Shown: positions 2,862 through 62,951 of the stretch, piece after piece
Layout of the letters: every line of letters begins with the position of its first letter
How positions within the stretch are numbered: the first letter of the stretch is position 1
Assembly: GCA_051294905.1 (NCBI GenBank)
Contig: CM119371.1
Span: forward strand, 31,188,001-31,252,000
Direction: 5' to 3'
From: Botryllus schlosseri
Lineage: Eukaryota
Length of the DNA stretch: 64,000 bases
Position numbers and translations under genes: made by a program
Notes under the pieces: model-generated
What the model saw: only the letters and a program-made list of their open reading frames with translations
Database searches by the model: none
Told to the model about the DNA's origin: nothing

Positions 2862-5800
2862 TCGCAATGAGTAATTCCGTTGCAATACTGATTTTCTGGA
2901 ATACACTTCCTTCCGTTGATACAGGAGAATTCGCCTGGTTTGCAGGAGGATCCTGGAAACGATGAACCGGCACGATATTAAAATAAAATAGCATGTATTT
3001 CATTTATCGAAATTTCAAGACGGTAAACGCTGCATTCTCTAATAACCTGACCTGTGCTGTGACTCTCCGCTTTTAGCGTTGGCGTAACCATTATATTGGT
3101 GCTGGCGAAATTTCCATGTGTACGATAACTTGCTAAGTAGCAATATTGTGGTTGTCACTAACATTCTGCATTTTTACCGGAGTATGTAGGATGGATTTAA
3201 CATTGGACATGGCACATTAATTCATAGTACGAGAAAGTTAGATATACGCAGTAAAGCCGGGTTTTAATCGGCGATATACCCACGTATGCCGGCTTGTTGC
3301 TTTAACAAAGCTGCCAGGAATCATGAAGGCATCAGTGGCGTTATTATTTTGCTCTTGGGCCTCTTATAGCTTAGCTTCCCAAAAGGTACCAATCTGGTTG
3401 ATACATTGGGTTTCTGATCAGTGGTGCCGTTTTAGAATATCCAATTTGCCAATAATCGAGCATAAACTGACTTGGCAGCTATCATAGATTTACCACTGAG
3501 CGTGGTTCTGTGATTTGACTTACTTTTTTTGGTTTCCTAAATACGGAATGGAGAAGTAGAGTAGCCCCTCACCATCACACATTTCATCGTGATGCGGAAT
3601 AAGATTGACTGGTAACTCGCATAGAAAATATTGAAAATTGTCCGTCTTTTTGCGGCATAATGTAGCATTGGTGTCAATATTCTCGGATTTCATCCACGGT
3701 TCATCCGATCTATCTCTGTGAAGAAATATGTTACAAGTAAATTGCATGGATTTGAAATACGTGTCATTTTAATATAAGACGAGAACCGAGTTGCTGGGTG
3801 ACCACCGTCAGTAATATAACGTTATATTTTCGGGACAACTTCGAATGATTTCTGCCGATGATTGTGTTTTGATTTTGATAAATTAGCTTGACAAATTACA
3901 ACACTTTCATCGCGAGATGACGCGAGCGCTACAATATGAATAGCCGATACGCAGTTGAAGTCAATAACGCAATGGTAAATGTCGTAGATTGGGATGTTTA
4001 ACATCAACAAAGTATTTCTGCATCTGATAATATGCTGGGCTATACCGGCACTGATCAAATCCATCACAGAACCTTTTCCTTGTTACGCACGTTGACCCGG
4101 AGTCGCATGAGAATTCGAACAATAGACACGCCGAACCTGAACGGGAAATATTTATCTAGTGAGCGGATGAATTACAGGCATTCAATGGGACTCGGAAACA
4201 CTTATTTCGAATAAAAATTTCTAAATAGGATCAATTAGTATTTTCTTGCCCTTGGTCTTGAGTTGTTGTTAGCAGTCGTCGTACTTGGTGTAAGTGCTCA
4301 AGGCGGGTTTCCAAGAGATAGCAGGAAGCGTGCATGTAATTTTGCTACTGACTTTCTATAAAGTTAGGTCGAAGTCATCAACATTAAACATAATCGGGAC
4401 ATGTGATGAGTAAAATTCTGAAAATTCTCGGATACCTATATCGATGATTCAGTTGGACTGAAAGGCTTACGGTCGTGTATAGATCAGAATCTAGTGAATT
4501 TTCCCTCGATGATGAGCCATGGTGTTGTATCTAGAATAATAACTATCAACTCAAACCGCGCTACTGGTAATTGTAATTACAACGTCCAGACGAACGCTAC
4601 ATGCAGACGGTACATACCAAACATTGTGATGTCACCTACTTTCAGTTAACTCGACGTGGCTACTGGTATGACCATGGCGTAGTCACTCAAACACGCAGTA
4701 ACATAGACTTAAATTTTTACATCATGATACAGAAAGTATGTGCTACTACCAGACTTATCATATATCGCAGTGCTTCTCAACCTGGGTCCGCGGACCTCTT
4801 AATTTGCAAAATGGTTGATACTCTAATCTTTATTTTGGTAAATTAGGGAGTTCCCGACGCAGTTTCGCTTCATTACTGCTAAAATCTCATGACTCAAATC
4901 AACAGAATGGGCGTCTGAGAGGAAATACGCTGCTGTACAAACTCATTTTAAAATTGCAAAATTGCCAATAGCCTACTGATACAAACATATTTCTATTCAG
5001 AGATGTTTTTATTTGGAGTTTGTTAGGAAGATAAAAAGTTGGAGTAGAAAGGTCAATCACAATGAACTCGAAATATTTGCAAAAATCCATTTGTTTCCAC
5101 TGATATATATAACTGCGACTCCAGAATACCTTCAAGATGAATTGCTTGATAGAAACGAATAGGCTGGATGCTATATGTCCATTAAAACACCCGTTTCGCA
5201 ATTTTGGTGCCACATGTGTTGCGATCATATCCAAAGGTGTCGTCGGAAGTGCGACCCGTTATTGTTACATTCGCCACCATTTATCTTTGTGGAAATGACT
5301 TTTCGGCACTTGTTAATATCAACTCGAATGCGCGGAATTTCAAGACATAACCACGATTTCACGAAATACAGCTGCATTATTCAAAATAATATAAGTCTAC
5401 CCAATTTCTACATGAATGGTATGATGTTATTTTAAAGAAAAGTGATTTTACTGCTGTTTGTCACTAGGCTACAGTTGATACTTGCACATGAAAGAGCACG
5501 ATTGCATGACAATTGAGCTAAATTTGAATTAAAGCTTTGGGGTCCGCGGGGGCTGTGACGGTCGAAAAGGGGTCCGTGAAGACAAAAAGACTGAGAACCA
5601 CTGATATATCGGTTACAGTTCGTTGGTTGGATGAAGAGAAAATTGGTACACCAACTACGAAGTCATCTCGCACCTTGACTCAAGGCCCAGTTATGTAATT
5701 CATATTGTCAAACATTCAGAGGGCTAGTCTTATTGTGTTTTCAAATTCCGCTAGTTTTAGGCACATACTGGGATCGAATAAATATTTAATTATCTATTAC

Positions 5801-17800: not shown

Positions 17801-19415
17801 TAAAACGAAATTTGGTGAGGTAAGAATCCCAATGATTTACGACTAGATCTCTTACCCGTGGGCCGCCATTGGTGGGATTGCGCCTACCCACAACTACGAC
17901 CTTACCACGACGACGACGGCTTCAAAAATCTCAAAACCAGCCCTACCTGAACTAATAACTCCCTTCGGTCGAAAAAAAAAACTGATTCTACTCGCGTACC
18001 ACCTGGAAGACCTTCACGTACCACTAGTGGTACGAGTACCACAGGTTGGGAACCACTGCATTAAAGGTTACGACTGTGGATGAGAGATTTATAAATATGA
18101 AATTCAGACTAAGTACATAGCAACTATTAGGAATCAGGTGTAAATCGACCACCATAGTTTGAGAACCTGTGCCTTAGAATTATCATGGTATAATATACTA
18201 AGAAAAAGTTTATTCAAGTCCCTGCAATAATTCGACTTTTAGTACGCATTTTATCAATATTTTTAATAATTTTCTCAGACCGTCGCGGGTCGCACAGAAC
18301 GGTGTTGCGGGCCGCATGCGGCCCGCGGGCCGTAGTTTGCCCATCCCTGATGTAGGCCCATATGGACTTAATTTGGTACTGCTAGAGAGCTCCCCGGTCT
18401 TCTTATAGTATGATACTTCTTGGTTTCTGATGAAAACCCATTTTAATACGTACTTGCAATCTGTATGTCCGTCACAAAAGGCTGTATTTGGTATGCATTG
18501 AGACCCATCTGAACATGAGAATTCGTCTTGTAGGCAGGTTGATCCTGTACAATATTAATAAGAGAAACTAATGTGAATTTACTATCATCATTTTCAAACT
18601 GTTGCCATACTATAATAATAGTTGTTTATATAATAATGTTTATTTCATTCTGGGGATTTCGAATCGACCAATTATTTAAAATACTGGCCACTAAGGTGGA
18701 CTGCGTGGTGAAGATTTATGAAGTGCTCACCTTCACATAGTTCGCCTTTAACTGGTTCAAGACTCGGTGGTAGGACACAAATAAAGTACACTATGATATT
18801 GACACCATGAATCCATCCGGGATAAGACGATTGCCCTGCCGTACCGCGGCAAAAAGTGGTGTTAGCGTCGTAGGTGATGTTGTTGTACCCCAAAGCCGGC
18901 TCGTCAGATCCATCCCTGTCCACAAGCATGGATTTTAGTAATATATAAAAAAATATCCAATTCTGATAGTGCTTGAATCCTTTGGCTTCAGGGCGGGATT
19001 TCAAAGGCGAGGTACTACATACTAGGTACTACGAGATACTACAATAGAAATTAAAAATACAATCGTTTCTACAACTACTATATAAATATACGCGCGCCAA
19101 ATTCCCAATACTATCTGCTGACATGTAACCTTTCCACCACCAACATGTTGCTATACTTCGAATGTGCGCTACTTACGCGCAATCCTTTTCACCATTGCAA
19201 AATTTCCATGCTGGAATACATGCTGTCCCATCAGAGCACGGGAATTGATATAAATCACCATTTTCGCATGTAATACCTAAACAACATATTATCTGATATA
19301 TCGCAATGTCAGCACTCAACAGACTAGCACTACCTTCGCCATTGGAAAACCATACCACCACAGACGCTGCCATGTAAAAATATAGCGTCTTGAATTTTAT
19401 ACCGAACATCGTCAT
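2862..19415 (-). CDS. Gene A: LDLa-repeat GPCR paralog, 5' part (signal peptide + 7 LDLa-like modules); continues left of the window
   Basis: 14 GT-AG exons, open frame throughout: 19334-19415, 19177-19276, 18731-18915, 18454-18544, 11977-12137, 11772-11862, 9759-9910, 9244-9334, 8033-8181, 6988-7078, 5935-6077, 4046-4136, 3573-3715, 2862-2952. All but two exons have a collinear homolog in gene B. GPCR identity is inferred from that paralogy. Confidence 0.88.
4768..5603. mobile_element. Non-autonomous hAT-type element
   Basis: Termini cagtgcttctcaa / tgagaaccactg; perfect 8-bp TSD atatatcg. Confidence 0.88.
8895..9165 (+). mobile_element. tRNA-derived SINE (degenerate)
   Basis: Pol III A-box-like gtgcctcagttggtt and B-box ggttcgaatcc (8946-8956). 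No good cloverleaf. Absent from the paralogous intron of gene B. 3' boundary approximate. Confidence 0.55.
10394..11328. mobile_element. hAT-type MITE with truncated left end, same termini family as 14881-16753 (inverted)
   Basis: 11221-11328 is the reverse complement of 14881-14990; 10394-10430 matches the other terminus. Confidence 0.65.
13005..14475. mobile_element. Non-autonomous TIR element with TCGAGTA subterminal repeats (host of 13444-14399)
   Basis: Termini tacggctgggcacaat / attttgctcagcccta; TSD gttccgtg / gtttcgtg (7 of 8). Confidence 0.75.
13444..14399. mobile_element. hAT-type element with GACTC/TTGAC subterminal arrays
   Basis: TIR cagtgttgggat / atcccaacactg; perfect TSD actcaaat. 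Further copies at 50710-51543, 22348-22790 and 28348-28420. Confidence 0.92.
14881..16753. mobile_element. hAT-type non-autonomous element with internal tandem repeats
   Basis: TIR cagtggttcttaacctttt / aaaaggttaagaaccactg; TSD atgtagac / atgtaggc. Confidence 0.88.
15465..15649. mobile_element. Small MITE nested in 14881-16753
   Basis: TIR caatgttccctcta / tagagggaacgttg, flanked by the 7-bp duplication cacctca. A second, inverted copy lies at 55139-55310. Confidence 0.75.
17450..18171. mobile_element. hAT-type MITE, second level of nesting; same family as 43435-43732 and 59079-59382
   Basis: The sequence on both sides of the 17583-18058 insert aligns continuously with 43435-43640. Degenerate termini cagtgcttctc / gagaacctgtg. 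Confidence 0.7.
17583..18058. mobile_element. hAT-type MITE, innermost nested element
   Basis: Perfect TIR cagtggttcccaacct / aggttgggaaccactg; perfect TSD cattaaag; GTACCA subterminal motifs. Confidence 0.92.
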
Positions 19416-19711
19416 CGTTTTAAAATGTGCAACGTATGCTAAATTGCTCGGCGGTTAAGCTTTTTTAGAATATTAAATCCACCAATTTACCGTAGCCACT
19501 ATTTTCGAATCGAGCTCGAAATTGATGACTAATATAAAGTCATGCCTGACACCATGTCACGACTATGAACAAGCCAATCATATACACAGCAAACGTGCAG
19601 TCACCGCTATAGATCTACGATAACACAAACAAATGCTGATTGGCACAGAATTATATATTTAATTATTAGCGGTGGTCCGTGCAGGTATATCGTGATATTA
19701 TCAGAGGTCGA

Positions 19712-19800
19712 AGAATTTACAGAGGAAATGCGTGATTACAAGCAACTGCCAAGCTCGTTGCATTTCACGTTTATTTAGGCGACACCTGAAACCGTTAGAG
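19712..19800 (-). promoter_or_regulatory. Candidate promoter block of gene A
   Basis: Non-coding block conserved with 54872-54960 upstream of gene B. On the minus strand it reads CAGGTG (E-box), TAAATA (TATA-like), then CAGTTG (E-box), ~350 bp upstream of the ATG. Confidence 0.45.
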
Positions 19801-19856
19801 TAATCGATTAACAGGTCGTTGCTAGTCAGAAACGAAAATTGCAAATCTCACTAAAC

Positions 19857-20293
19857 TAGGCTTACCATGCGTCCTCGTTTAAGAGGATTTGTCCTCTTTT
19901 TTGACTTTTTTTAAAGTGTCCTCGGAGGACGCCCTTTTGTCCTCTTTTTTGAGATTTTGTCCTCTTTTTTGAAAATTTAGGTCAGAGCAAATTGCGAGTG
20001 ATATGCCGTAAATTATTACAGAAGTGACGCTGCGGAGGGTATTTCGGAGCGACAAACGCTATATTGAGCTCCGAGCGTAAAGATGACCTTTTTTTTTAGT
20101 CAACCACCTAGCATCATAGAGAGAAAAACGGTATTTTGAGGTGTGAACGGAAAGTTGACCTTTTTTTTTATTAGTCAACCGGTCACAAAGTGGGAAAAAT
20201 TCACCGGTTTTTGAGAATTCCACTCCGGTTTTGCAAGTCTCCAATTTCTGAAAAACTGTCCTCTTTTTAGATTTCCAAAATATGGTAAGCCTA
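19857..20293. mobile_element. MITE, TAGGG(T)TACCAT family with GTCCTCTTTT repeats
   Basis: TIR taggcttaccat / atggtaagccta; perfect TSD cactaaac. Confidence 0.9.
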
Positions 20294-20971
20294 CACTAAA
20301 CGATGCCCGATTTAGCTGCAGAAAATAAACATGTTGAGTTGGCGACATGTCATGTAGCAAGTATTGTTTTCAGAGAAGTGTACTGCCAACATAATGATAC
20401 ATCCAGTCATGATCAGATTTTTCGCATTTAGATTGAAGTATTGTGTTTACCATTATATACGTTGCGTGATTCCAAGAAATTGAAGTTGAACTGATTAGAA
20501 ATTGTTCGCCCCAAAGTTTCATATCTGCTTTATCACATATCTCGACATGACTTGCAGCATTTCTTATGTCACTTGTCCGTGAACAATGCAAGGCTTCAAG
20601 ACTGCAGCTGATTGCAATTGAGAATAGGTCACGCCAATGAATGAAATTGTCGTCTAAACGTCATTTATGGTACTACATATTTAAGTTGATACTTTTTTTT
20701 TTCTTGTATTCTCCAATAAATTTGAGAGTTTCAGGAAAACCAAATGTAACTTACCAAATCTATAAACCACATTAGTGTACTATCAATCTTGTCAATTTCT
20801 ATATTGCTGTAAAAGTGTCATGAACGGCATTTGTGTTCTACTAGGCTCAATTAAGACAATTGGATGCTAGTCTTCAAACTTTTCGGGAATATAATATGGT
20901 TCTAGTGAAGACAACTGTAATACTTGATAGCAGAACGACATGTCTTGATTTTCAACCAAGTTATGGTAGGC

Positions 20972-21359
20972 TAGGGTTACCATACGTCCTCTTTTAAGAG
21001 GATTTGTCCTCTTTTTTGACTTTTTTTTAAAGTGTCTTCGGAGGACGCGCTTCTGTTCTCTTTTTTGAGATTTTGTCCTCTTTTTTTAGAATTTTGGTTA
21101 AATATAGAGCAAAATCGACCGAGATACAGTAAATCATTACTGAAGTAACGCACCGGCGGATATTCCGGGAGCTGAGCTGGGAAGTTGACCTTTTTTTAGT
21201 CAACCGACGGATAATGTGGAAGAGAAACTTTATTTCGGGAACTCAGCCGGGAAGTTGACCTTTTCATTTACCATTTTTTAGGCTTTTTCACCACATTTTC
21301 AAGTCTGAAAATTTTGCAAAAGTGTCCTCTTTTCAGATTTCCAAAATATGGTAACCCTA
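20972..21359. mobile_element. MITE, same family as 19857-20293
   Basis: TIR tagggttaccata / tatggtaacccta; perfect TSD tggtaggc. The empty site is visible in the paralogous intergenic DNA near 60930. A third, truncated copy lies at 47518-47830. Confidence 0.9.
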
Positions 21360-21664
21360 TGGTAGGCCAATCAGAATCCTCCAACATGCTATCGTTACAT
21401 CACACGAATTCGATGCATACAAATGCTACTAGAGGAAAGCGGGAGTCTTAAAAGGGCTCTGCACTCCAAAAATGATTTGGTCTCAAATGAAAGATAAAAT
21501 CGGGAAGAAATTCTGTAATCCACAAACCACCTAAAGAAATGATGTGACTAGAATGTGGAGTTCACGTCGAGCAAGTGCAAATGAAGATATCGTGCAAACT
21601 ATCTCCGACGGGTTAAGCAGTGGAGCTCGCTGCAACGCCACTATTGAACACTATCAATTCAACT

Positions 21665-23298
21665 CAGAGATGGAAGTCGGGCCGGGCTTTTCGGGTTCGG
21701 GCCGGGTTCGGGCCGGGCTCGGGCCGGGTTCGGGCCCAAAGTTATAAAAATTATCGGGATTGAATCGGGCCGAATAGTCACTACGAAAAGCATTGACTTC
21801 ATATACAAATTTGATTTGCAATTTTGTTCGAAAGTGGCACAACTACATATAAGATACACCAATACCGTATCACGTATAAGTATGGCAATATCTGTGAATA
21901 AATTTTATACGAAGTACGAACCCAGATAAATTTCATTATAAGACGGCCCGAAGACTATGATTGAATAATGAAACAATGTCAGCTAAATAGTAAACAAGTG
22001 TCCCAAAAACGCCAGACATTGATCATTGTTCAGGCCACATTGTGACGAAAACATGACTTACGGATGGATGGATTACCATGCTGGAGTCTGGATTACTACC
22101 AATTTAGTTTTAATTTCGATGACGCATGCTGAACTGAACAGCTAGAAGCAGGTGATGAGACGACGGCTTCCGTTGTGGCACAGCAGAATTGATCGATAGA
22201 TGTGTTACGGCGGTGTTAATATTTATTAAAGAAAGCTTTTAGATGCGCCATAGTGATTTTGTCGTCCATGGTGAATTGCTTTAGGTCTATACGGAAACTA
22301 ACTTATATTGTATTAGGCTATGTGACAGCGGTAGTATTGTTATATAGCAGTGTTGGGATCAAGTCACTACCTTCGAGTCACGAGTCATTTCGAGTCATTG
22401 CGCATTTTGACTCGAGTCAAGTCAAGTCAATCGATTTTCAAAGCTGACTCGAGTCAAGTCAAGTCACTCGATTTTTGGAGGTGACTCGAGTCAAGTCGAG
22501 TCAAGTCACGAGTCAAGTCACAATTCAAGTCAAGTTGCCATTTCGAAGTATGAGGCATGATTGCATCATTGCATTTTGCTAGCTGTCTGAAATACATATT
22601 GAGTGGTCCCTGATTCTGAACCACTAAACGAATATAGAGTTGAATATACACGCAAGAAGGCGCTGTATCGCTCACATATACGTAGAACGGGTAAACTACG
22701 TTGATAGTCACCAGCCAAAATAGAGAATAGAGAATTGATTGAGAACGAATTGATAAGATGCAATACATTACCCATGTACAAATTGAGAGACGAACCCGAC
22801 TGTATCCAGTAACTGTTGAGGCTATTGAAATAATCAATTCTTCGTATAACGTGTGAATGCAACGCCCTTTGTATGGATGACAGTTGACTTGTATTTTGAA
22901 CACACTATTTTTTCTCATCTTGGCCAATTTCATTCCTTTATTTCTTTAATTTAGTTTAATATTGAACCATTTAATACAGTTCACATTTTGCAAAAAGGAT
23001 GGTGGAACTAAGTTAACAGTGGGGCTGTTTTCAGCGTATTCTCATTCAGATATATTAAGTTCTCTTGCCATATGCAAGATTGCTATCGAAAGAAAACAAA
23101 GTGAGAGCATTGAAAAGCTCGAAATTTGAATCGTATATCAGCTTATTTGCTCGCAACAGTTGAAAATTGCTATTTGAACTTGGTTTCGGGCCGAAACGGG
23201 CTCAAAACTCGACCGCCGGGTTCGGGCCGGGTTCGGGCTGAACTTGTCGGGTTCGGGCCGGGTTCGGGTCCGGCTCACCCGGCCCGCTTCCATCTCTG
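21665..23298. mobile_element. hAT-type element with CGGGT/CGGGC subterminal arrays; contains a truncated GACTC-family element (22348-22790)
   Basis: TIR cagagatggaag / cttccatctctg; perfect TSD attcaact. Confidence 0.9.
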
Positions 23299-23740
23299 AT
23301 TCAACTGGCGAGCAATGGGGATAGTTATTATTTCTGTTTACTGGCAGCTCCATTACGGTGACTTTCTGATAAAAATGTCTGCGGCAAAAAAAAAATTGAG
23401 ACCACAGGATATTTAGAGTGCGCTGTCCCTTTAATAAGCAAAAAGGGTATTGCATTGTAATGAAAACAACCACAATCTTCATTCTGATTCCGTGAAATCT
23501 ACACTAGATCGGAATAATATATTTCTAGACATTGATATTATATCATCATCGTTTTTACGAGGCCGTCTTAATGAAATTGACTATAATTTTAATTCATTTC
23601 TCAGCATCATCGCTGTTTTCAATAATTAGCAATGCCATTATCGAAATGCTTTCACAGGACCCTCTCAAGATAAAAACGCTCGTAAAAGCATCACTGAGAA
23701 ATTGAACATATGTTTCGACAACAAGGTCATTGCATGGTCA

Positions 23741-23746
23741 TTTATT
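23741..23746 (-). terminator. Candidate polyadenylation signal AATAAA of gene B
   Basis: About 110 nt downstream of the stop; conserved at the equivalent position in gene C (61327-61332). A second AATAAA lies at 23769-23774. Confidence 0.45.
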
Positions 23747-23854
23747 GCGGGTGCTCCACGATTGACATTTTATTAACTTGAAATATATACATCAGTTGAT
23801 TAACTCAAACTGTTTGGTCATTTTAGATCACAGCTCCTGTCGCGACAATGCACT

Positions 23855-26800
23855 TCATCTGTCTGTCATTTCCACTGCCTCGGTTTCTTCCGGAGCGGAA
23901 GCTGGTAATGGTCTTCCGATTCTCTTCATCTTGTGCCAAATGATTTCAGGAAGATCCGAATAGAGAAGCGGATTCAACGCACTATTAATTGGTACGATCA
24001 GCAAACCAGCCGGCAGGTATACATCTTTCGGTACGACAACGCCTGCACGAAATTTAGAAGTTATGTGCTGGTTTATCAGCAATTTATTTATTAATGATTA
24101 GGTAACTAAATGAAATATTCATGCCCAGTGTTGATTAATACATAGGGTATTCATATGGTTTACGTAAGGATACACTGTCATAGTCATGATTGATTTATGC
24201 GGAAATTTAAATGGGGAAAGATTTTGGTATATTTTATATATATTCACAAATATAATATAATACTTTTTGTTCAGCAAAAATGCATATAAGGAACAAAGAC
24301 ATGTATTCTCATGCACGTTAAATCGTTCATCGCAGTACAATCTGACGAAAAATGTTATCTTTTACTTGCAATATGTCCATGTAATCCTGACCAGGTTGAA
24401 GTTTATCAGTCATGGTAATGATTTATTTATACTCCACCAAACACATGTGAAAATCAAATTTCGTAGTCGTAAACGGTTAATATTCCTAACAAGATCTGGC
24501 GTTTTAAACGAATCAACTTTCGTAATCGTGTGAGAAAACTGACATGAGCATATTTTTTACTCTAAAATTCACAAGCTATATTAGGAAGCACGTACCGTTT
24601 AGCACTATTTTCCACTCCGGAAAATATGCTACACATGTTCTACTCACCGTTAAAACTCAAGAAACCGATGATACAAATCGGTATCCAGCAGAGGAAGTCA
24701 GATATCACGATTCGTGTCAGCTTGCGTTGTAGTCTGTTGCTTTCCTTATTATTCTTTTCTTCGCTGGCGTTAATTTCAATCGCGGTTGAAGTGACCATGG
24801 CGTGTCTACAAAAATTAGAGTTCCGTCTGGGGTAGTCGAACTAGAACATCAAACCGGATAAGTCTTTAACCATGCCCACGGTTAGTAATTTGGTTAGTTA
24901 GTTGGTTAGTCCAGTTAGCCCGGAACGACAACCGCTTACCTGAACAACAAAACGTAGCAAACGAGCATGTAGAGAAATGCTACAAAATTCAGAAGCAGCA
25001 GAAAGAATGAATATCCCCAAGCCCTGTCCACGGATGGGTCAGGAAAAAATGTCGGCAGACAAACGCCGTGACTTGAATAGTAGCCGAATTCATACGCCAC
25101 TGTCATGTTCGGGTTTATGTCCAGAATCATATCCTTTAACTGGCTCCAATCAGTAAATCTGGAAATTATTTTTACTACCTTTGTAAGCAGTTAAATTGTT
25201 ATTTGTTTGTGCTACTATACGTACTTATGTTGAGGCTGGGTGGTAGTTTGAATTAGGCTGAGCCACTTATTCATGTACTGAAGATCTTGATACTTCAAAA
25301 CCTTGAACATTTGGTTTTCGGTGAACCTTTAAGATAGGAATGTAGGAGCAGTCAAGTTGAGAGAAATTTGATTATCACAAACAAGGTGACCTTGCTTCGT
25401 CAGGATGACTTTATATCGTAACGACTTCATGTTTGTAACTTCTCGCCATTATTGGTAAATCGGGTATTGCTGGATATGGTTAAGGTTTCCATATTAATTA
25501 ATGAAGTAATTTTGAATAGTGTTGGAAGTGTTGTCGGAGTAATGTAAGCTTGGCAATTTCGTTATGCCATAACAAAGAAGATTGTAAACGATGGGAAGAA
25601 TTTATTTACCCCCGTAAAAATTCAAAAGTTTTGAAACACATTATGTACCAACCGTTACTCATAAATAAGCGTCAATCATAACTTTTTGGAAATGCTGGAA
25701 TTTCCTAATCTGCTGAATTATGACTTATGGTATTTTCGGTCGCGTCAATGGTTTTATTTGCAGCAGTAACGAAATAGATACCGAAATAGTTTTCGATGTT
25801 AGCTGTCGAATGACTCACAACATTTCTCGAAACCTTCCAATGGGGCCTCCGCAATAAATTAGAGCTAGCTTGCAGTGATCATAAACCGCAAAAAAACAAA
25901 ATTGAAAACATTATTGTCACAGATGTTCCCATGCAATCGCAAGTATATAAGCGTGTTCAGTCACGCAAAAATTAGTGGATACTTACGAAATGCTGCTCAC
26001 AAAATAATCTTCGATAAGTGGAATGAGAGGGATTATACCAAGTAATATCGATACAAACCATGAAATGGAAACTGCTATAGTTGTTACAGCAACGCGCGGC
26101 CGAGAAAACGGTCTGAAAATAATCACAATCTGCTGAAAATTATGATTGTGATATTAGACGATTGACCAAACCATGCACTTGAACGATATAGTGGTGTGGT
26201 TGTGGAACATCATTAAATTGAGAAACTGCAGTGAAGCAGTATCCGTGAACGGGAATGAACTTGGCATATTTGCTGCTGAATAGAGATTTACGACCATTTT
26301 GATGATTATTCTCCGTGATTTGCTTACACTATACATGTGTATATGTATTATGGCTGCAGCACCACAGCTGCGTTGACTCTAGATACGAATCGTGTCACAG
26401 TGAACACGGTGAACTCGTATGCAAATGAAAAACAAATATCGAGCGGATTTATTTTTTAGATGGAGCTTATGTGACCTCAGTTATGGTAACACGCTACACG
26501 TTCGACGTATAACGTATATGACTCGCATCTAAGGTGGGAACTCATAGTTGATTGATTTTTCGGTACGTTGTTACTTCATAGTGTATAACAGAACGACTAA
26601 ACTACTCAAATCAGAGTCAAATATCTATTGTAATATGTCTTGGCTCTGCCAAGTTTCCATGTATCAGAAGTTTGTCTGGGCTCCCTCAAAAGTCTTCAAA
26701 AGCCAAGAGGAGGAGGTAGTCGAACTCGAGAAAGTTGGCAGCATAGATACGATAAAGGGCGCAGGAAAGCGACAGTTTATGAACAGAGTTAGTGCGAGAG

Positions 26801-29800
26801 AATGACAAGTCGTCCGTGAAGGCAAAATACACTGAACTTTATCAAATACATCGTAGTGGCGAACCAGGCCTGAATATGCAATAAGCGATACTGTCGTCTT
26901 CGTGTAATAATGATTATAATATTATTTGTAATAATTCTACACGAGCAGTGATTAGTGAGAGTATAGATTTTTGTTCGAGGGTGCGCCATTGCGCTAAGAG
27001 TTATTTTATTGGCGAACAAATATAGTTTCGACACTTGACTCCTTGAACCGTGAAAACTAGGTCGGCCATAACTCAACATCCAAAACATATTGCAACCGGC
27101 TACAGTATTTCAGTGAGTTCAGTGGGCGAACCCAAGCACTAACATTGTTTCGCTTGTTGCGAACACGGAAAATATCTCAAATTCTCTGGTCAATATTGCA
27201 TTTACGTCGCCATCATAGCAGTGGTACTCAAACAATCGTCTTGAACCAAATTGGAATATTCGAATCGTGACCAAATTACCCATGCACGCCAATTAAAATG
27301 GGCAGAGATACAACCTTATGCAACAATCATCTCTTTTTCAGAGATGTCTCACCATTTCAGCTTAATAACAGCATGACAAACCTCATTACAGAGTATAGTC
27401 TGTGGCTTGCGATGATTGCCATTGTGAAGACGGATTGCTCGGACCCAATAACCATGATCGCACCCAAGGCGGAACAAGTGCTACTGGATCTCCATGCGTG
27501 ATCGATTTGACAATAGTCGGTGTTAGTTTGCGAAGCCTTTAGTGAGATCGAAAACGCATAAATCTGAAAATTGCAAAGCTCATTGTTAATTTCTGATAAT
27601 AAATGTAACCCACATCCAACTCACCCCCACCAGTAAATCAGAGACTGATAAGCTTAATATCAATCTGCTAGTGAGGTTGGTGCGTATCGAAGATTTTGCC
27701 ACATTATCGGATAAGAATGGTTTGATCGCCGACCATACGGTTATCATTATCACTGCCGTACAACCGATCATTGCCCCTAAGCCTGAGTAAAATAACCATT
27801 ACTGCAGTGCTGCCAGCATTTTTCTGTATACTCGTGGCATTTTGATGATGGTTTGTACATCAAAAGCAGCATAGTTGGTTAACTGAGCTTTATATAACAT
27901 ATTTTACTGTACTGTTCTAATATAAAAAATTGACATTAGTTCCAGCTAGAAAAAGATGCATTGATAATGATTTTGTACGATCAAGCACAGCCAGCCGTTT
28001 TGGATCCGACGATTATAACAGAAACGTGGCGATAACAAACCAATCGGCTTACTTATTATCCAGCTGAGCGCAAGAATCGCTTTACTCGTTATCATCGATT
28101 TTTCGTCGGAAAAAGCGCTGTCGATGCATCCAGGCTGACATTCATCGATTCCGGACTTGCAATCTTTAATTCCGTCGCATACCTGCATGTGATCGACGGA
28201 ATTCGATTGGTGTTGAAGTAAATGTCACGTCATCTGACACTGATAAAACAGGCTTAATCTGAATATCTGGTTCGTATCTCGGGGTATACCGTGGCCAGAA
28301 TATCGACACTACAGATATTTACTCCAGTAAATATACCAGCATAATATCAGTGTTGGGATGACTCGTTTCATGACTTGACTGATTCGAGTCACTTTGTAAA
28401 AATGACTTGACTTGACTCGGCGCTGCAGTACTATATATCGATGAAATATCGTTGCAAAATTCATTCATTCATTCCAAAGAAAATTGATCAATTATCCAAA
28501 ATTTTCGTTGCGCCTTGCGCGAAATATACCGACGATGTATTTTGTGTTTCCACGAATGCAGTGGTTAGTATATTTCGCTTAAAATGTGTTTCTGATATAT
28601 ATTGCAGCAAACAGCGTCCCGAAATCTGAAAGCGTGGTTCAATAAAAGTGAGAGCCATTAGTAGGCTTGCAGTAGTCATGGTTTGAAGCTTTCTGACCAG
28701 AATGATCTTTGTTTTCGAGAGATACAAAATGCAACGTCACCGAATTGGGGTGTGTACATTCGGCTCAAACGCAATAGGTATAACAGTTGTTATAAGAACC
28801 TTGATTTGATCCCGAAAATAGTCCATACAATTATCAGATTGGTAATTAGTCAAATGCTCATCAGGTGCGATTCAAACGCGAAATATTTCCAAGAGTCGAG
28901 TGTAAACCCGAAAAAATGCTCCAGACTTGGGCGTCTACGACATCATCTTTAGTACAGTCCTCAAAATATTGTTAGCGCCAAACTATGAGAATTTCCGAAA
29001 GGAGCGTTAAGGGGAAAAAGGTCAAGACCCACCGATTTAAAGTATGAAACGAACAAAATTAATGCAAATTATGATGGTCAGCATCGGGTCAGATCGGGTT
29101 GAGAGATCCGTTGAAATGAAAATGTATCTTTCATTATCTCAGTGTCACGAACGAATTGAGAAAAAATTAATATTACAACTCAAATCTCACGGAATCTAGT
29201 GAAATATACTGCAACGCTCCATCGTCTTCGCAGTTGAAATGGGGACATCCTTCCTCGTCTGCTCCATTATCGCAATCCTAAAATAATGAGTCGAATTTTG
29301 CATTACATGCGGTTGCTATAGCATCTGGAGGTATATCTTTAAATCCCTGTCCTAGAGCAGAGCGCGACTGCGATTTATGTCGGTACAGTAATAATCAACC
29401 AAATGACCGCATGTAATTGAGCGATGGCAATGTTCATAAATCAAACTACTATACTGATACGGCAAAAGGCCCTCAATCAATATCGCCGCATACTGATAGT
29501 GCATACTGTCTACATGTGCGGAAAAACGACTGATATCCCACTGGACTCCAAGCATGTTTCTCAAAAATGGAATCCCAGTCAGATCAGACTCCAAGGTCGG
29601 AATTTTGAAATAAGCAAGATGCGATCATTTACGAGTAGCAATACCTAGTATACTGCAAATATATTAGACCATACGTTAAGGTGGGTTTATATTATGACTC
29701 GTTTATGATCGGATTAACTCGGTGGATAGTGGCTGGTGGCTACTGGCTACAATATAGTCAGTAGGTACAATGGCGCCACTACGGCGGCCCGATAAGACTC

Positions 29801-38800: not shown

Positions 38801-41800
38801 GTTTTTATATAAAATGAGTATTGGACCTAGTCCAAAATTGTAATTTTGCACAACGGAAATATACTTGCTCCTGTACCAATTGGGCACTCTATCAAGATGA
38901 AAGATGAGTATGGAGCCCTTAATTTTGTCTTTACCTAGAATACTCATGTGGCTCGTGTTGACACGAAAATGAGAAATTTTCTGCTGTGCTTAAAAGTGGC
39001 TATTAGGGTTGTCCAAAATTTGGAAAATCTTACAAATCCTCCGTTGTAATGTCTTATTCTATAGATTATTGATAAAAAACGACATTAGGCCTAAAAGAAG
39101 CTCACAAGGAGGCCGTTAAGATTTCGTGCAAAGCGTTTGAAAGTAGCTGCTGAAGAATGGGCGTGCCACCGACCATAGAACGGCGAGAAGACTAGTAATC
39201 ACGAAACCACGGCTCTTGATTGGCTAATCTGCTATGCTTCAATGACCTTGACAGCAGCAGCTTGCTGATAAGGTGATCAAGGAGTCTGCTACCGGCGGCG
39301 ATTCTGAAAGCGCATTGTATGTAGGTTGACAGATTATGATTCAGGATTGATTCAGGGTATGTTGAGGTACGAAATACATGATGAACAAACCACAGCTGCT
39401 TCACAAAAACGTCTAAAGCATGACCGCTTTACTGTGAAGGAAACCGCCGTAGCCTAAATGCCTTGTTTTCAACGAGGGAAAGCGGTGCTTAGGTGCTTAT
39501 GCAAGTGGCGATGGATTCCTAGTTTCAGAACGGATATATCATTATTGAATACAAATATAAAGCTTAACAACGACACTATAATTTGTATGATCTTATTGGG
39601 CTCAAGTTGTAGTACATAGTTGAAGTTGTGAATGCTCTAGGGATCGGCTGAATCAGACGGTTAGGCCTGGCACTTATCAGATGTTTACAGCAAATTGAAT
39701 TCACTTGTAAGTGTTTTCAAAGTCCCAAATGATGCCGCAGAAACGAGGTGTAAATGTAAGCACACACATACTGTGCTTGATATGATATACAAACTATGCT
39801 GGATACTATGCTCTATGCAGTATTTTCTGTGCTTACCTTTGCATTCCTTTTCTGCGCGTTTATTAAGGACTTTGCCATATCATTGACATATCATATCCAG
39901 CATAGTATGTGCTTACTATTACACCGCTTTCCTGCGTCATCATTAAGGACTTTGACAACACTTGCAAGTGAATACAATTTGATGTAAGCATCTGATAAGT
40001 GCCAAGCATAACCCGCCGATTCTTAGAGCATTCAAAACTTCAACTATGTACTACCACCTGAGCTCGATAAGATCACACAACTAATAGTGTCGTTGTTAAG
40101 CTTTATACTTGTATTCAATAATGATATATCCTTTCTAAAACTAGGAATCCATCGCCACTTGCATAAGCGCCTATGCTTTCCCTCGTTGAAAACAAGGCAT
40201 ATAGGCTGCGGCGGTTTCCTTCACAATAAAGCGGTCATGCTTTGGTTTTTGTGAAGCAGCTGTTGTTTGTTCGTCATGTATTTCGTACCTCAACATACCC
40301 TGAATCAATCCTAAACCATTATCTGCCAACCTACATGCAATGCGCTTTCACAATCGCCGCCGGTAGCAGACTTCTTGATCACCTAATCAACAAGCTGCTG
40401 CTCTCGTGGCCATTGAAGCATAGCCGATTAGCAAATCAAGAGCCGTGATTTCGTGATTACTAGTCTTCACGCCGTTCTATGGTCGGTGGCACGCCCATTC
40501 TTAGGCAGCTACTTTCAAACGCTTTGCACGAAATCTTAACGGTCTTCCTGTGAGTTTCTTTTAGGCCCATTGTCGTTTTTTATCAATAATCTATAGAATA
40601 AGACATTACAACGGAGGATTTGTAAGATTTTCCAAATTTTGGACAACCCTAGTGGCTATACTAAGTTCCGATATTTTCTATATGTTTATGCGGCAGAAGA
40701 GCAACAATCCAACACTGACGCAAGAAAGACTGGTTAGAATGACCCAGTGTTCAAGTTGGAATACCCAATGTACTCAATGAGCCCAATGGTGCATACCCAG
40801 GTATAGATAGAATTGTCATTCCTACTCATAAAGCAGTTCGTCAAAGCATTAAGCGAAGAGTGGAATTGCTTCAAGAACATCTGCAGACAACTTCGAGAAC
40901 TCTCAAAGTGGAAACTTGAAGCTAGTATCTTCGAGAGACCTCGAATTAGAATGCGGGTGAAAGATTTAAATTTCACGCAGACAGAAATGGGCTCACGGCA
41001 TGAAATAGCTTCAAGGATGTAGTAAAAAACTTCTTGCAGAATCAAAAGATCTCAACTACAAACAGTTGATTCAAAAATTGTTTTCTGCATATGGCAGAAA
41101 GCAAGTGGCAAGTGAAATGGTTCAACCAAGACATCAAAATAATTAAATCAATGCAGATTAGATGAACATATGATGGTAGAGCATTGTTGGAACATGTTGA
41201 GTGACTGCATTCCCAAAATTGCTCACAAGCGAAATGGTGTTACAACACTTTGTATCTCAAGATTAATAATAACTATCCTTATTGTGTTTCATGTGACTAT
41301 TTTGAATTCGACTTATATCAAACATGGATAATGGATTTATTGGAACAAAATCTCAGTAGTTCATGTGGACACTTATCAGAAAAAGTCATCAACTGGGATA
41401 TATCTAATGCTCCATAAAATTTATGAAGTTGCTGTATTATGACATAAAAATCTCTTCATTATGACAAAAAACGATTAGGTTGAATTTCCGAAATTTGTAG
41501 TACGAGTGAGCTGTTTTTTGTTAACTAGCCAATAATGCGTAAATATGAGATTTTAGTCAAAATAGCCCAAAACCATAAACTAGGGCAAATTTGAAAATCT
41601 AAAGTCATACTTGATATCGGTGTCCTTCAGAGACCCATAAGCACTCTTACTTCGTCTTTCATTGGATACAGAAATACCAAAGCACACATCGACTAAAATA
41701 GATCACCGATTGTTGTACGTACTTGCAGTCAGTAATTCCATTGCAATACTGATTTTGAGGAACGCACATCCTTCCGTTGGCACAGGAAAATTCACCCGGT

Positions 41801-54506: not shown

Positions 54507-54871
54507 TTCAGAATGTGCAATACAGGATCAATTAAACGTTAGCTATGCAGCTTTAGATCATACTGCTGTCGACTAACAGGTGCTGTTGTATCTGAATAGA
54601 ACTTGAAATATTTAAATAATAAAACGCCACGTCGAAACTACTGAATAATGTCACGAATGCTATACTCGATTCGTAGCAGCTAACATTTGAAATGATCGCA
54701 GTCACAAATAACACCGCACAATAATCTTTCATTCGACTGTGGCTTCATTGTGCCCGCAGGGTTTTGCTGTATCATTCTTCATATCTCACCGAAGGTTGGA
54801 GGTATTGTGGTATGATCATGAGCACCAATGCCGCGATGGCAACACAAATTGTGATGCTATCAGAGCTTGGG

Positions 54872-54960
54872 GAATTTACTGAGAAATGCGTGATTGGGAG
54901 CAACTGCCAAGCTCGTTGCATGCCACCTATATTTAGGCGACACCTGAAACCCTTGGAATA
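54872..54960 (-). promoter_or_regulatory. Candidate promoter block of gene B
   Basis: Paralogous to 19712-19800; shares agcaactgccaagctcgttgcat and tatttaggcgacacctgaaacc exactly while the flanks diverge. Confidence 0.45.
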
Positions 54961-55800
54961 TTCGATTGACATGCCATAGCTGGTGAATATGAAAACTGCA
55001 AATCCCAGTTAATAACTGCTTACCGGTAATAGCAAACCGTTCGCAGATGTAACAGCAGGATATGTGACATAAAAGGTGTTCTTTTCAGAACTGTGTACTG
55101 CCAACAGACATGAGGTAACCGTGGTTAGTAATCGTAATCACTGTTCCCTCTACGATGCGCGGGTTCGCGATTGCGCAATGCTGACACGGTCTCTGCGCAC
55201 TGAATATCTAAGCTGCGCCCCCCAAAAAAGTGATGACCTTTTTTTGTCGTTACGCACTGTCGGTGAGCTGGTGATTGCGCGCAGACTCGTGAAAAAATAG
55301 AGGAATATTGATCATAAATCGATTACGACGATTATAGTATTTTTAGGTAGTCGTGATCGCAATCGATAACATTCGAAAGAAATTCGAAGTTATCGTAATC
55401 GAATATTTCGAATATCTAGTCGATTTCGTTATAAAAGAACGATGACTTAGTACTTCTGCTATGACTATCACAATACCTGAACATCTGTGAACAAGTAATA
55501 GTGCGTTATTATATCAGATTTTTTCTTGCAGAAGCGTCTGGTTTTTAAACTCCACTGTTCATCGCTCGTCGAAGCGTCGATCGGTGGTTCTAACCGATGT
55601 TTTCTGGAGTTTAGGAGGACACAAACTCACCTCATGCAGCCATTGGTAGTAGACCTAGTCGAATTAACACTGTTAGTGGTACGACGTGTGTAGTGGCATA
55701 TGCTGGAAAGTTTAGTATTAGAAACCGAAACCTCTTCCTTCCGAAATGCCAATTCTATCTCTACTATTTAAAAGAACCTTTGCAATTACCCAATTTGTAT

Positions 55801-56313: not shown

Positions 56314-56528
56314 CTAACAATACACAATTGCCAAGTTTATTCCTTGCATTTCTGAACTGGTGTTTGAAAGGCAGTAGCAGCAGTCAAACATACTACAATA
56401 AATATTCATTATAATATTTTCGGTTTGTTTGAAAATCATATTTTAATAGTTTTGTTTTATTAACACTCTGTTGATGTACAAGTACAGTTCATTTTGTGCG
56501 TCAGGAATCTATAGCAAGGCATCAGATG

Positions 56529-59666: not shown

Positions 59667-59953
59667 AATTAGATGGTGATTAAGGCTGACTCCAAGCAAA
59701 ATACGTGTTATGTTGAAAGATTTGTGCCATTTTATGGTCGGGGCAACTTACCCGTGAACGCTTTTAGTTGGTCTCACACTTTAAAATGATTAAAAATGTT
59801 CCGTCACGAAGTTTCAGACCTGCTTCGTGACTTACTTAACATGGCTTGAAACATTTATCCTGCGTCGCGCCCTAGAACGATTTCGGGTTGAAAAACTGAG
59901 GCTGATTACAATTGGGAATATGTCACACCAATTATGGAAAGTATTGTCTAAAC

Positions 59954-60609
59954 CAGTGGTTCTCGACCGCGGACCGAAGCAGGTTCGACGACAGTTTCGT
60001 GCCGATGCGCCATATGTAAGCATTTTATATCTTTATTATACCATTAATTAGAGAAGTAAAAGATGAGATTTTAATTTGATCAGGAAGTTTGTAACATATT
60101 TTTGCATGGTGTTGTAATAGACAGTTAATGGTCCCCTTTGACCGTAGGTCACAATGGTGCAAATGCTGTACGAAACTGTTTAAAAGCAGTCTACGTCTGG
60201 CTTCCGACAAGTTATGTGTGACGGCTACGGATATTTTTAAACAAACTTCGGTAAATTTAGCCGGTGCAATTAAACAACGATTGTGAGTATAACAGAGACT
60301 ATACAGGAAACAGACAAGTAGCAATATCTTTTACACGATACCGAACCAACAACAGCATCAGTTCAAGTTATTGCTCCTTAACAGCTGACTTCGCGAGCTT
60401 CGCTTTGCAGAACCTTCAATAGAACAACGTTAAAACACGTAATATCTTGATAGCAGCATTAAGCGAAGTTTCCAATATTAAATTTGAGCTGCATACATTT
60501 GTGGTAGGCTACTTAAATTTAGGTTTGGGATTTTCAAAGCTTCACCGGTGCGTAGCATTTATTTTGAAGTTTTGTCGGTCCGCGAGGCCAAAAACGTTAG
60601 GAACCACTG
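59954..60609. mobile_element. hAT-type MITE, GCGGACC family (inverted)
   Basis: TIR cagtggttct / ggaaccactg; flanks gtctaaac / ctaaac. Internal similarity to 49960-50060. Confidence 0.78.
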
Positions 60610-61326
60610 CTAAACGGCATTTATGGTACTCCATATAAGCGTTTATACTTTGCTTTTTCTTGTATTCTGCAACTGATCTCCAGGTCCCAGAAAAACCTAA
60701 TGGCAACTCACGAAATCTATATACCATATTGGTTAACTTTCGGTTTTTCAATATCACATCAACCTCTTGCTGTGAAAGTGCCCCAAAAGGCATTTGGTTT
60801 CTACTAGACTCGATGAAGATAATAATTAGATATTAGTCTTCAAACTTTTCGGGAATATGACATGGTTCTATTGATGAAAACAGTCATATTTGATGGCAAA
60901 GATTTATGTCTTGATTTTCCACCAACTGATGGTATCAGATTCCTCGAACATACTATCGTTCTATGACCCGAGTTTGATACATGCAAATGATGCGAGAGAT
61001 AGGTGGGGTCCTAATAAGCAAACAAGATATTGCATTGGAAAGAAAACAGTTACAAACTTTTTTCCAATTTCGTGAAATCTAAATTAGCTCGGGACAAATA
61101 TATTTATAGACATTTAAGAGATGTTAAATCATCATCGTTATAACGAGGACATCTCGACGAAGGTAACTATAATTTCCATTTATTCCCCAGTGTCATCATT
61201 GCTTTCATTAAGTGGCATTGTCATTATCGAAACACTATCACAGGACCCTATCAAGATGAAAACGCCCGAAAAAGCATCACCGAATAATTGAACAAATGTT
61301 TTGACAACAAGCTCATTACATGAATA

Positions 61327-61332
61327 TTTATT
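61327..61332 (-). terminator. Candidate polyadenylation signal AATAAA of gene C
   Basis: About 100 nt downstream of the stop, within a 3' region alignable to gene B. Confidence 0.45.
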
Positions 61333-61431
61333 ACGTGTGCTCCACGATTGGCATTTGATTAGCATGGGATATATACATCAGGTGATTATCTCAAACTGTT
61401 TGACCATTTTCTCTTGTCCAAACGATACACT

Positions 61432-62951
61432 TCATCTCTCTGTCATTGCCACCGCCTCGGTTTCATCCATAGCGGAAGCTGGCACTGGTCTCCCGATCCT
61501 CAAAATCTTGTTCCAAATGATTTCAGGAAGATCCGAATAGAGCAGCGGATTCAACGCACTATTAATGGGCACGATAAGCAAACCCGCCGGCAGGTAAACA
61601 TCTTTCGGTATGTCAACCCCTATACGAAATTAAAAAGATATGTACTGGCTCATCAGCACTTTACTTAATGATTATGAGTTGACTAAATGATAGAGCCGAA
61701 ATATCGTTAAACGTGGAATCAAGTGCAGTAGTGATTTTCACATTCGATATTCACGAGATTTACGTGATGATAGATTTCCATTGTCATGAGTGGCTTATGC
61801 AGGAATTAGAATGGAGATAATATTTTGGATATATTACGCATTTTTATCCACAAATAGAATAGAATAGAATACACTAAATATGATGAATTTTACGAATAGT
61901 TACTTCATTAAAAACCATTTTCGTTCAGCAGAAATGCAAATATGGAACTAAGACATGACGTCTCATTAGAATGTATCGTTAATAAGAGTACAAGATGACA
62001 ATAAGAGTATCTTCTCTTTGGAAAATTCCCAAGCTGAAATTTATCAGCAATCGTAAAGATATTTTCTGACTTTACCAGACACATGTAAAATTAACACTGA
62101 AAAGTCGCTACCAACTTTTGTAATCGTAATCAGTTAATATTCATGAGATAATTTGGCATTTCAAAAGAATTGACTTTCGTAATGATGTGAGAAAAGTGAA
62201 AAGGCGACAATTCCATGATTTGTGTTTATTATATAAAAATTCACTCTGTTGTATTCAGTAACATATGACAAGAATGTTCCGCTTACCGTTAAAACTCAAG
62301 AAACCGATGATGCAAATCGGTATCCAGCAAAGGAAGTCAGATATCACGATTCGTGTCAGCTTGCGTTGTATGCTCTTGCTTTCCTTATTATTCATTTCTT
62401 CGCTGGCGTTAGCCTCAATCACTGTGGAAGTGCTCATGGCGCGTCTACAAAAATTTGACGTGCGTGAATAAAAAGTTCAACCCGAACGTCAAACCAGATA
62501 TATCATGCTCACACTTCGTTGGTTAGCTATAGCTAGTTAGTGCAATTAGCTGGCATCGACAACGACTTACCTAAACAACAAAACGTAGCAAACGAGCATG
62601 TACAGAAAAGCTACAAAATTCAGAAGCAGCAGAAAGAATGAATATCCCCAAGCCCTGTCCACGGATGGATTCGGAAAAAATGTCGGCAGACAAACTCCGT
62701 GACTGGAATAGTAGCCGAACTCGTACGCCACTGTCATGTTCGGGTTTACGTCAAGAATTTTATTCTTCAGTCGGCTCCACTCAGTAGATCTGCAAATAAT
62801 ATTTGGAGAAATCAATAAATGCTCAATTCACATGTTCTACTATACGTACCCATCTTGAGGCTGCGGAGTAGTTTGAATAAGGCTGAGCCACTTGTCCATA
62901 TACTGAATATCATGGTAATTTACCACTTTGAAAATTCGGTTTTCATTGAAC
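61432..62951 (-). CDS. Gene C: third paralog, last four exons (ECL2 to TM7 and C-tail); upstream exons lie right of the window
   Basis: Exons 62850-62951, 62571-62789, 62287-62444, 61432-61619 have the same lengths (102, 219, 158, 188 nt) and phases as the last four exons of gene B, with near-identical TM5-TM7 protein. Stop TGA at 61432-61434. Confidence 0.92.

Follow-up and report, generated by a model that had tools for sequence, protein, structure and literature searches.

Probable LDLRR-GPCR paralogs in tandem in Botryllus schlosseri carry a repeated eight-cysteine module encoded by a frame-symmetric exon pair

An analysis of 64,000 nucleotides of the Botryllus schlosseri genome (assembly GCA_051294905.1, contig CM119371.1, positions 31,188,001 to 31,252,000; this whole stretch is called the window, and its first letter is position 1) revealed three paralogous segments on the minus strand, named A, B and C, which were found by six-frame reading and self-comparison. 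They are very probably tandem paralogs of the ascidian LDLRR-GPCR family of orphan G-protein-coupled receptors (GPCRs), an assignment made from sequence. The protein encoded by gene B begins with a signal peptide and an array of modules with eight cysteines (8-Cys modules), continues with an LDLa doublet and a core of divergent LDLa units, and leads via a short hinge to a seven-transmembrane domain (7TM) of the RXFP1 type; it has no leucine-rich repeats (LRRs). The gene type itself has been known since 2008. Added here is the repeated 8-Cys module on a frame-symmetric exon pair, which is shared with Styela proteins. The copies evolve by gene duplication and by gain or loss of such two-exon cassettes, mostly under purifying selection.

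The exon models of all three genes were built by hand. Gene B is the sole whole copy in the window; it has 29 coding exons (54506 to 23855, minus strand like all receptor exons below) and encodes 1231 residues including the signal exon. The other 28 exons form a single open frame with GT-AG introns of matching phases. Gene A is represented by its last four coding exons (62951-61432) and gene C by 14 ectodomain exons (19415-2862), the remainders lying beyond the right and the left end of the window, respectively. Homologous exons are spaced by 37,625 bases between A and B and by 35,088 and 38,861 bases between B and C, in agreement with a preliminary description of this DNA, which had noticed three same-strand paralogs with a period of about 35-38 kb. 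Matching exons share 78-91% of their nucleotides between A and B and 71-85% between B and C, the synonymous divergence (dS) is 0.32 and 0.50, respectively, and frame and splice sites are intact in 4/4 exons of A and in 14/14 of C. Due to this exon divergence, the copies are not assembly duplicates. Copies were counted within the 64-kb window, and the array may be longer.

Gene B opens with a signal-peptide-like exon (54506-54422), which has a phase-1 donor and is followed by a 57-nucleotide (nt) in-frame intron; a homologous exon exists in C (19415-19334), and the splicing of the B exon is predicted from the sequence. With this exon, a one-nucleotide frameshift suspected at the 5' end of B was ruled out. 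Upstream of it lies a block (54848-55007 in B, 19689-19850 in C) that is 80% conserved between the two genes. It contains an ATG with a possible donor, and their use would keep exon 2 in frame in C but leave B one base short; the block may be an exon of the 5' untranslated region (UTR) or an alternative first exon. The five 8-Cys modules of B (54364 to 41960) each consist of an LDLa exon of 91-100 nt (phase 1-2) and an extension exon of 143-173 nt (phase 2-1). Modules 1 and 2 are encoded at 54364-54265 plus 53970-53798 and 53688-53598 plus 52494-52343, modules 3 to 5 at 50428-50338 plus 48819-48665, 45650-45560 plus 43950-43808, and 42516-42426 plus 42102-41960. They are followed by a complete LDLa doublet (41813-41723, 38178-38051, 36287-36252), which also occurs in Phallusia, Ciona and Styela proteins, and by the membrane-proximal core of divergent LDLa units (36190-36032, 35968-35872, 32005-31959, 31675-31375, 30477-30370, 30075-30012, 29277-29191), which is colinear with the proteins P0001 of Phallusia and P0002 of Styela. 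The 7TM, which is of the RXFP/GRL101 type and has an insert of about 60 residues in extracellular loop 2 (ECL2), and the C-terminal tail are encoded at 27782-27625, 27563-27382, 26112-25987, 25326-25225, 25158-24940, 24805-24648 and 24042-23855. The ectodomain of C comprises, after its first coding exon, 13 exons (19276 to 2862; 71-85% identical to those of B) that encode six 8-Cys modules and the first doublet exon. The four exons of A (62951-62850, 62789-62571, 62444-62287, 61619-61432; 78-91% identical to those of B) encode the ECL2 insert, the ECL2 core, transmembrane helices TM5 to TM7 and the C-tail. By eye, about 13 LDLa-like units were counted in B, five of them inside 8-Cys modules. 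When 14 receptor exons were scanned with Pfam, PF00057 scored above the cut-off for B exon 53688-53598 (E 1e-7) and weakly for three others; two of the four core exons scanned gave weak PF00057 matches. Matches to MARF1_LOTUS, Toxin_29 and a PRKCSH-like family were below the cut-off and were taken as chance.

Several lines of evidence agree that the LDLa units of B are not separated from the membrane domain by LRRs, a statement that holds for gene B alone, because only this copy is whole in the window. In exon 28182-28053, one frame runs through half of the last LDLa unit and an RXFP1-like hinge into the first half of TM1; TM1 is completed by exon 27782-27625 after an intron of 270 nt. Thus, the last LDLa unit does run straight into hinge and TM1 within one exon, as originally described, except that this exon carries the first half of TM1 only. 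The model of gene B contains no LRR motif, and an LRR regular expression gave 0 matches in the three minus-strand frames of the window. A tblastn comparison of six LRR-bearing relatives with the window produced 151 matches, of which five fell into the LRR regions of the queries, all with E-values of 5.4-8.7; the 7TM and LDLa parts of the same proteins matched at E-values down to 6e-7. Moreover, B aligns in one piece with LRR-less proteins: The identity is 35% over 1133 columns for Styela P0035, which matches 20 of 28 B exons in tblastn, and 33-35% over 839-896 columns in single alignments with Phallusia P0001 and Styela P0002, both LRR-less. Motif, regular expression, tblastn and colinearity together bear out that there is no LRR between the LDLa array and TM1 of B.

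It is this lack of LRRs, combined with the end-to-end alignment with LRR-less Styela, Phallusia and Ciona proteins, that assigns B to the LDLRR-GPCRs. According to the sections considered here of the study of Kamesh et al. (2008, PMC2396169), this orphan family has 14 members in Ciona intestinalis, which combine LDLa repeats with a 7TM like that of INSL3/relaxin receptors, lack LRRs and result from a lineage-specific expansion; they possess 1-10 LDLa repeats, mostly of the classical six-cysteine type, and most of the loci listed lie scattered, two of them being neighbours on 8q. Gene B resembles these receptors in its LDLa units, its relaxin-receptor-like 7TM and the missing LRRs. It differs from what those sections report in that its N-terminal repeats are mostly non-classical, in having about 13 units, and in that three copies stand in tandem. 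A search with the 7TM of P0002 gave 18 proteins, ten with LDLa and 7tm_1 domains but without LRR, six with LRRs and two with 7tm_1 only; the named LRR-less ones belong to Styela clava (five), Phallusia, Ciona intestinalis and Ciona savignyi. Four further Styela clusters, some of them perhaps versions of one gene, came from a later search. All named close relatives are ascidian. In a 7TM tree of 20 rows, which included neither human RXFP1/2 nor Lymnaea GRL101 nor the four Styela proteins found later, A and B fall into an LRR-less clade of 13 rows (support 100/99, including the long-branch protein P0011), apart from a clade of seven GRL101-type rows, and group with the Styela rows (91/97). Tree and alignments are in agreement with the earlier classification as an LRR-less, orphan LDLa-GPCR of ascidians.

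A close architectural match is found in two Styela clava proteins, LOC120346100 (P0035) and LOC120327042 (P0003, XP_039249356.2), automatic annotations with no assigned function. Both have, arranged as in B, 8-Cys modules, one doublet, core, hinge and a 7TM with ECL2 insert, and are 33-35% identical to B over about 1130 columns; their modules are fewer (four and three). Among solved structures, RXFP1 (PDB 7tmw) was the best 7TM match, both for the family profile and for the related protein P0006. Human RXFP1 and RXFP2, which are type C1 LGRs, share the type of 7TM, and most of their switch residues in hinge and ECL2 are kept in B. In contrast to B, they have one LDLa unit, relaxin-binding LRRs and a short ECL2, and Leu566 of RXFP1 corresponds to a threonine in B. 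GRL101-type receptors (type C2 LGRs; the Pecten proteins P0012 and P0013 and, as far as the source was considered, the Biomphalaria SudRes2 cluster, PMC12297450) likewise have many LDLa units, a related 7TM and tandem clusters, but they keep LRRs, form a separate clade and lack 8-Cys module and doublet by the pattern used. The parts considered of PMC11797021 and PMC4079206 do not mention LRR-less forms. Clusters that combine LDLa and 7TM and for which no LRR family is listed also exist in the ESM Atlas; Ctenophora is the phylum most frequent among them. P0011 and these Atlas proteins have LDLa and 7tm_1 domains with no LRR family listed, and P0011 also has a long ECL2 insert; the identity is about 27%, and P0011 lies on a very long branch of the tree. 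As a lead, receptors of this LRR-less LDLa-7TM kind, long ECL2 insert included, may occur beyond the ascidians, whether by shared ancestry or convergence.

The 8-Cys module consists of an LDLa unit without the sixth cysteine and a truncated second unit: The first exon encodes LDLa cysteines 1-5, the second a DxSDE motif, a 14- to 17-residue linker and the remaining three cysteines, named Ca, Cb and Cc. The six N-terminal units of B lack the sixth cysteine at its usual place, and five of these are 8-Cys modules. At the place of the module, Phallusia, Ciona and other Styela members have a doublet, whose second unit finishes with CDxxxDC...DE. By profile comparison, the extension half matches this second unit with a score of 22.4, versus 5.4-10.0 in 20/20 shuffles with fixed cysteines. 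Because of this match, we infer from the sequences that the module is a doublet truncated at a phase-1 intron. Note that neither the extension half nor the second unit of the doublet was linked by the profile comparison to the N-terminal half of classical LDLa, which is why the LDLa origin of the second unit rests on its C-terminal motif. A phmmer search with one extension exon gave three matches, one of which (P0020) was a real exon-like match; the other two were repeat proteins and were set aside. No 8-Cys module was found in the LRP/VLDLR-type proteins scanned, a set drawn from our own searches. In the literature searched, in which subscription papers were thinly covered, we found no description of the module.

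Among the 127 sequences scanned, the number of modules was five in B (followed by one doublet), six in C, four in P0035, up to three in Styela P0003 and its cluster members, and nine in P0034; single matches in P0049, P0051 and P0053 were discarded on inspection by eye, being doublets that lack one cysteine. P0034 comprises 794 residues, with its nine modules following a signal peptide and no 7TM in the record; its C-terminus resembles an intron read-through, and possibly the protein is the N-terminal part of a longer receptor. Each module of B has its counterpart in C (four of these pairs are starred), with no sign of shuffling. What distinguishes the two arrays is a two-exon cassette of C that is absent from B; it consists of extension exon 12137-11977 and LDLa exon 11862-11772 and is bounded by phase-2 introns. 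Its exons are 50-65% identical to every other module exon, as compared to 71-85% for B/C pairs, and no remnant was found in the matching intron of B. Since its identity to the other modules falls below that of the B/C pairs, the cassette is, judged from these comparisons, older than the B/C split and has therefore probably been lost from B rather than newly gained in C. Those of B and C form a group distinct from the modules of P0035 and P0003 (88/86, not starred), which suggests separate amplification. The length of the Ca-Cb loop varies from 10 to 23 residues across the modules of B and C. The changes in module copy number and the variable loops noted at the outset are confirmed by these data, C having one cassette more than B and loop lengths differing between the copies.

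The 7TM of B retains most of the residues which constitute the switch of RXFP1. According to the parts considered of a structural study (bioRxiv 10.1101/2022.01.22.477343), ECL2 of RXFP1 (Y556, Y557, C563, F564, P565, L566) fills the orthosteric pocket, signalling requires hinge residues L402 and L403 and is restrained by I396, S397 and the LRRs, and the isolated 7TM attains 70% of the maximal signal. A second report, likewise considered in part, describes the hinge as autoinhibitory and assigns this role to the hinge loop itself (bioRxiv 10.64898/2026.06.10.731386). With P0006 as the bridge for mapping, the residues of B are YY, C, L, P and T at the ECL2 places and F/S and M/I in the hinge, and thus match RXFP1 in kind except for the threonine in place of L566. 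The serine corresponding to S397 is present in B and in 13/14 family hinges listed. The ECL2 insert has about 60 residues across the family (59-70 in nine proteins measured).

These features can be combined into a model of receptor function. The 7TM would keep the self-activating switch of RXFP1, with ECL2 in the orthosteric pocket and the hinge restraining it. In the absence of LRRs, the last LDLa unit, being adjacent to the hinge, might take over the restraint, perhaps together with the 60-residue ECL2 insert. A large extracellular protein that binds the module array multivalently would then release the restraint and elicit G-protein signalling, most likely in blood cells by analogy with Ciona; reach or specificity could be tuned between the copies by their differing module numbers and loop sequences. 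We consider this the best explanation overall, namely tandem LDLRR-GPCR paralogs with an RXFP1-type switch released by a large extracellular ligand on the module array, and assign it a probability of about 50%; anatomy and family are those observed above, whereas restraint, ligand and tissue are postulated.

Of 24 sequencing runs listed, four contain part of the window (share 0.06-0.08); none of these is recorded as RNA, which speaks neither for nor against expression. Runs X1, X4, X7 and X11 were aligned to positions 18400-38390 and evaluated in their best-supported rows; X7 is an RNA-Seq run. One X1 contig and four X7 reads lack the predicted 134-nt intron 24939-24806, the ends of which read CT..AC. 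The segments 23732-24041 and 24647-24805 are contiguous in an X1 contig, and the ends of other pieces coincide with predicted exon edges. Hence, B-like 7TM exons are spliced in RNA (X1, X7). Assembly duplicates and complete silence of all copies, two outcomes that would have contradicted the preliminary description, are thus not observed. LRR exons were not among the best-supported rows of the four runs, and neither was the joint from LDLa-hinge to TM1; X11 had near-zero depth over the 7TM exons. The best-covered transcript (23732-27781, X1 and X4 contigs) is closer to B than to A and matches the 3' UTR of B, with 3.8% exonic differences. The variants in the last four exons carry the letter of A in 10/21 cases, and 6/7 X7 reads have the letter of B at 24972. 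These features suggest that the transcript stems from a further young copy or a divergent haplotype, or that 7TM exons have undergone conversion.

Several observations weigh against the proposed model or parts of it. In LDLR, certain acidic and aromatic LDLa positions bind Ca2+ and ligand lysines. Both Asp residues together with SDE are present in 3/6 first LDLa units of B and 1/6 of C, and the aromatic residue two places before the fourth cysteine in one of six units of either gene; as few units keep the acidic set and the aromatic residue, ordinary LDLR-type binding by the first LDLa units appears doubtful from sequence. The mean pLDDT of AlphaFold models is 41 for P0003 and 38 for P0027, which is too low to judge fold or disulfides of the module; a Foldseek search with the P0003 model recovered LGR-family 7TMs weakly (TMq about 0.2). 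Five exonic RNA pieces differ from B at 42/1099 bases, as compared to 34/2636 in nine non-coding pieces (drawn from the 16 rows listed, leaving out two ATP-synthase pieces), and due to this difference the main transcript may stem from a sister copy or a divergent haplotype. Coverage over 18400-19066, which contains the first C exons, is zero in 4/4 runs. At the place of L566, A and B have Thr, and relatives have Arg, Asn, Lys, Gln, Thr or Leu. As far as the source was considered, Asp at this place abolishes RXFP1 signalling, and the LDLa module is not inhibitory in RXFP1 (bioRxiv 10.1101/2022.01.22.477343).

In order to assess the earlier proposal of a diversified recognition system, pairwise dN/dS values were calculated according to Nei-Gojobori with bootstrap intervals, using one gene pair per region. 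The value is 0.27 (0.17-0.43) for the 7TM part of A and B (221 codons) and 0.36 (0.26-0.49) for the ectodomain of B and C (435 codons). Within the latter, the SDE motif (0.07) and the linker (0.20) are constrained, and the loops reach 1.12 (0.33-5.43) for C3-C4, 1.08 (0.43-3.85) for C4-C5 and 0.83 (0.40-1.64) for Ca-Cb; against pooled dS, these become 0.57, 0.82 and 0.86. No loop class is significantly above 1 for the B-C pair, a comparison with little power. In the 7TM of A and B, identity amounts to 95-98% for the ECL2 core with TM5 and for TM6-7, and intracellular loop 3 (ICL3) and C-tail have a dN/dS of 0.66 each, nearly the rate of the ectodomain loops. On the sequence level, this pattern fits relaxed constraint on surface loops; with one gene pair, positive selection at a few sites may escape notice.

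The alternative that the copies form a diversifying non-self recognition system (immune, gamete or chemosensory), in which positive selection adapts the module loops to new ligands, must be weighed against these numbers. The contrast between loops and SDE motif or linker, the Ca-Cb loop length and the span of 3-9 modules across proteins all speak in its favor. So do two published observations, taken from the parts of the sources considered: Most expressed sequence tags (ESTs) of the Ciona family are from blood and haemocytes (PMC2396169), and a cluster of 12 GRL101-like genes, whose proteins have LRRs plus a lectin domain, lies in a schistosome-resistance region of a snail (PMC12297450); the resulting link to immunity is indirect and by analogy. 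However, all three loop intervals include 1, the pooled-dS values stay below it, the cytoplasmic ICL3 and C-tail change nearly as fast, and B and C modules pair one to one, although one gene pair gives little power either way. Of the original proposal, tandem duplication, module-number change and variable loops stand, whereas the selection expected of diversification is not apparent, as dN/dS is well below 1 overall. We regard this alternative as possible, though rather unlikely.

According to a different explanation, loss of the LRRs removed autoinhibition and left constitutively active receptors, whose module array is a spacer, anchor or trafficking handle and whose output is set by expression level. 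In the considered parts of the structural study, LRR-deleted RXFP1 indeed has 70% of maximal signalling, and the minimal inhibitory construct required LRRs and hinge (bioRxiv 10.1101/2022.01.22.477343). Yet the inhibitory hinge serine is present in B and in nearly all family hinges listed, autoinhibition has been assigned to the hinge loop itself in the second report as considered here (bioRxiv 10.64898/2026.06.10.731386), and the ectodomain is under purifying selection, which makes permanent activity improbable. Equally, we give little credit to the idea that the receptors sense lipoproteins or protease-inhibitor complexes through LDLa binding of the classical type, a speculation voiced for the Ciona family and for snail GRL101, or that they bind insulin/relaxin-like peptides. 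Lipoprotein or large complexes were proposed as ligands of the Ciona receptors, as speculation, in the sections considered of PMC2396169, and several units do keep the acidic motif; but the usual aromatic residue is missing from most N-terminal units and the full acidic set from half or more, these units are non-classical 8-Cys modules, and relaxin, according to the portions considered of bioRxiv 10.1101/2022.01.22.477343, binds the LRRs of RXFP1, which are absent here. Finally, that one real gene is accompanied by assembly duplicates or dead copies is hardly credible: Neither A nor C is whole in the window, coverage of C exons is missing in four runs and a retrotransposon occupies the intron after the last visible C exon, but the dS values given above contrast with about 1.3% differences in non-coding pieces of the RNA runs, and neither frame nor splice sites are disrupted in any of the four A and 14 C exons, whose dN/dS lies well below 1.

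Three other elements were noticed in the window. The retrotransposon, of the long terminal repeat (LTR) type, is represented by an open RNase H-integrase frame of 622 residues at 3-1868 on the plus strand with a purine tract near 1887-1898, and is thus antisense to gene C. An intron of B contains, at 37450-37612 on the minus strand, a 3'-end fragment of the mRNA of the ATP synthase gamma subunit (PF00231, E 4e-15); highly expressed contigs match it with six differences and a 3-nt gap and continue into other sequence on both sides. It is probably a retro-copied piece. Also in a B intron, an element of 1.66 kb (38999-40656) has long inverted arms of 412 nt (93%) as well as inner arms and resembles a foldback or non-autonomous DNA transposon.

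The significance of these receptors lies in the fact that they keep most of the RXFP1 switch without the LRRs said to restrain it; their basal activity would therefore be informative on how relaxin-family receptors are held off. A more far-reaching scenario, which we put forward tentatively and consider unlikely at present, is that the 8-Cys module, originating from a truncated LDLa doublet, replaced the LRRs in one ascidian lineage as an expandable, variable ligand array, so that copies with 3-9 modules and rapidly changing loops would be a recognition repertoire (GPCR-based innate recognition or allorecognition) on an RXFP1-type self-activating switch. Positive selection over all copies together with blood-cell expression would make the family a candidate for such a GPCR recognition repertoire. 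If this scenario is true, a close relative of vertebrates would possess a GPCR-based innate or allorecognition system, and its receptors would offer a natural, LRR-free test of RXFP1 autoinhibition.

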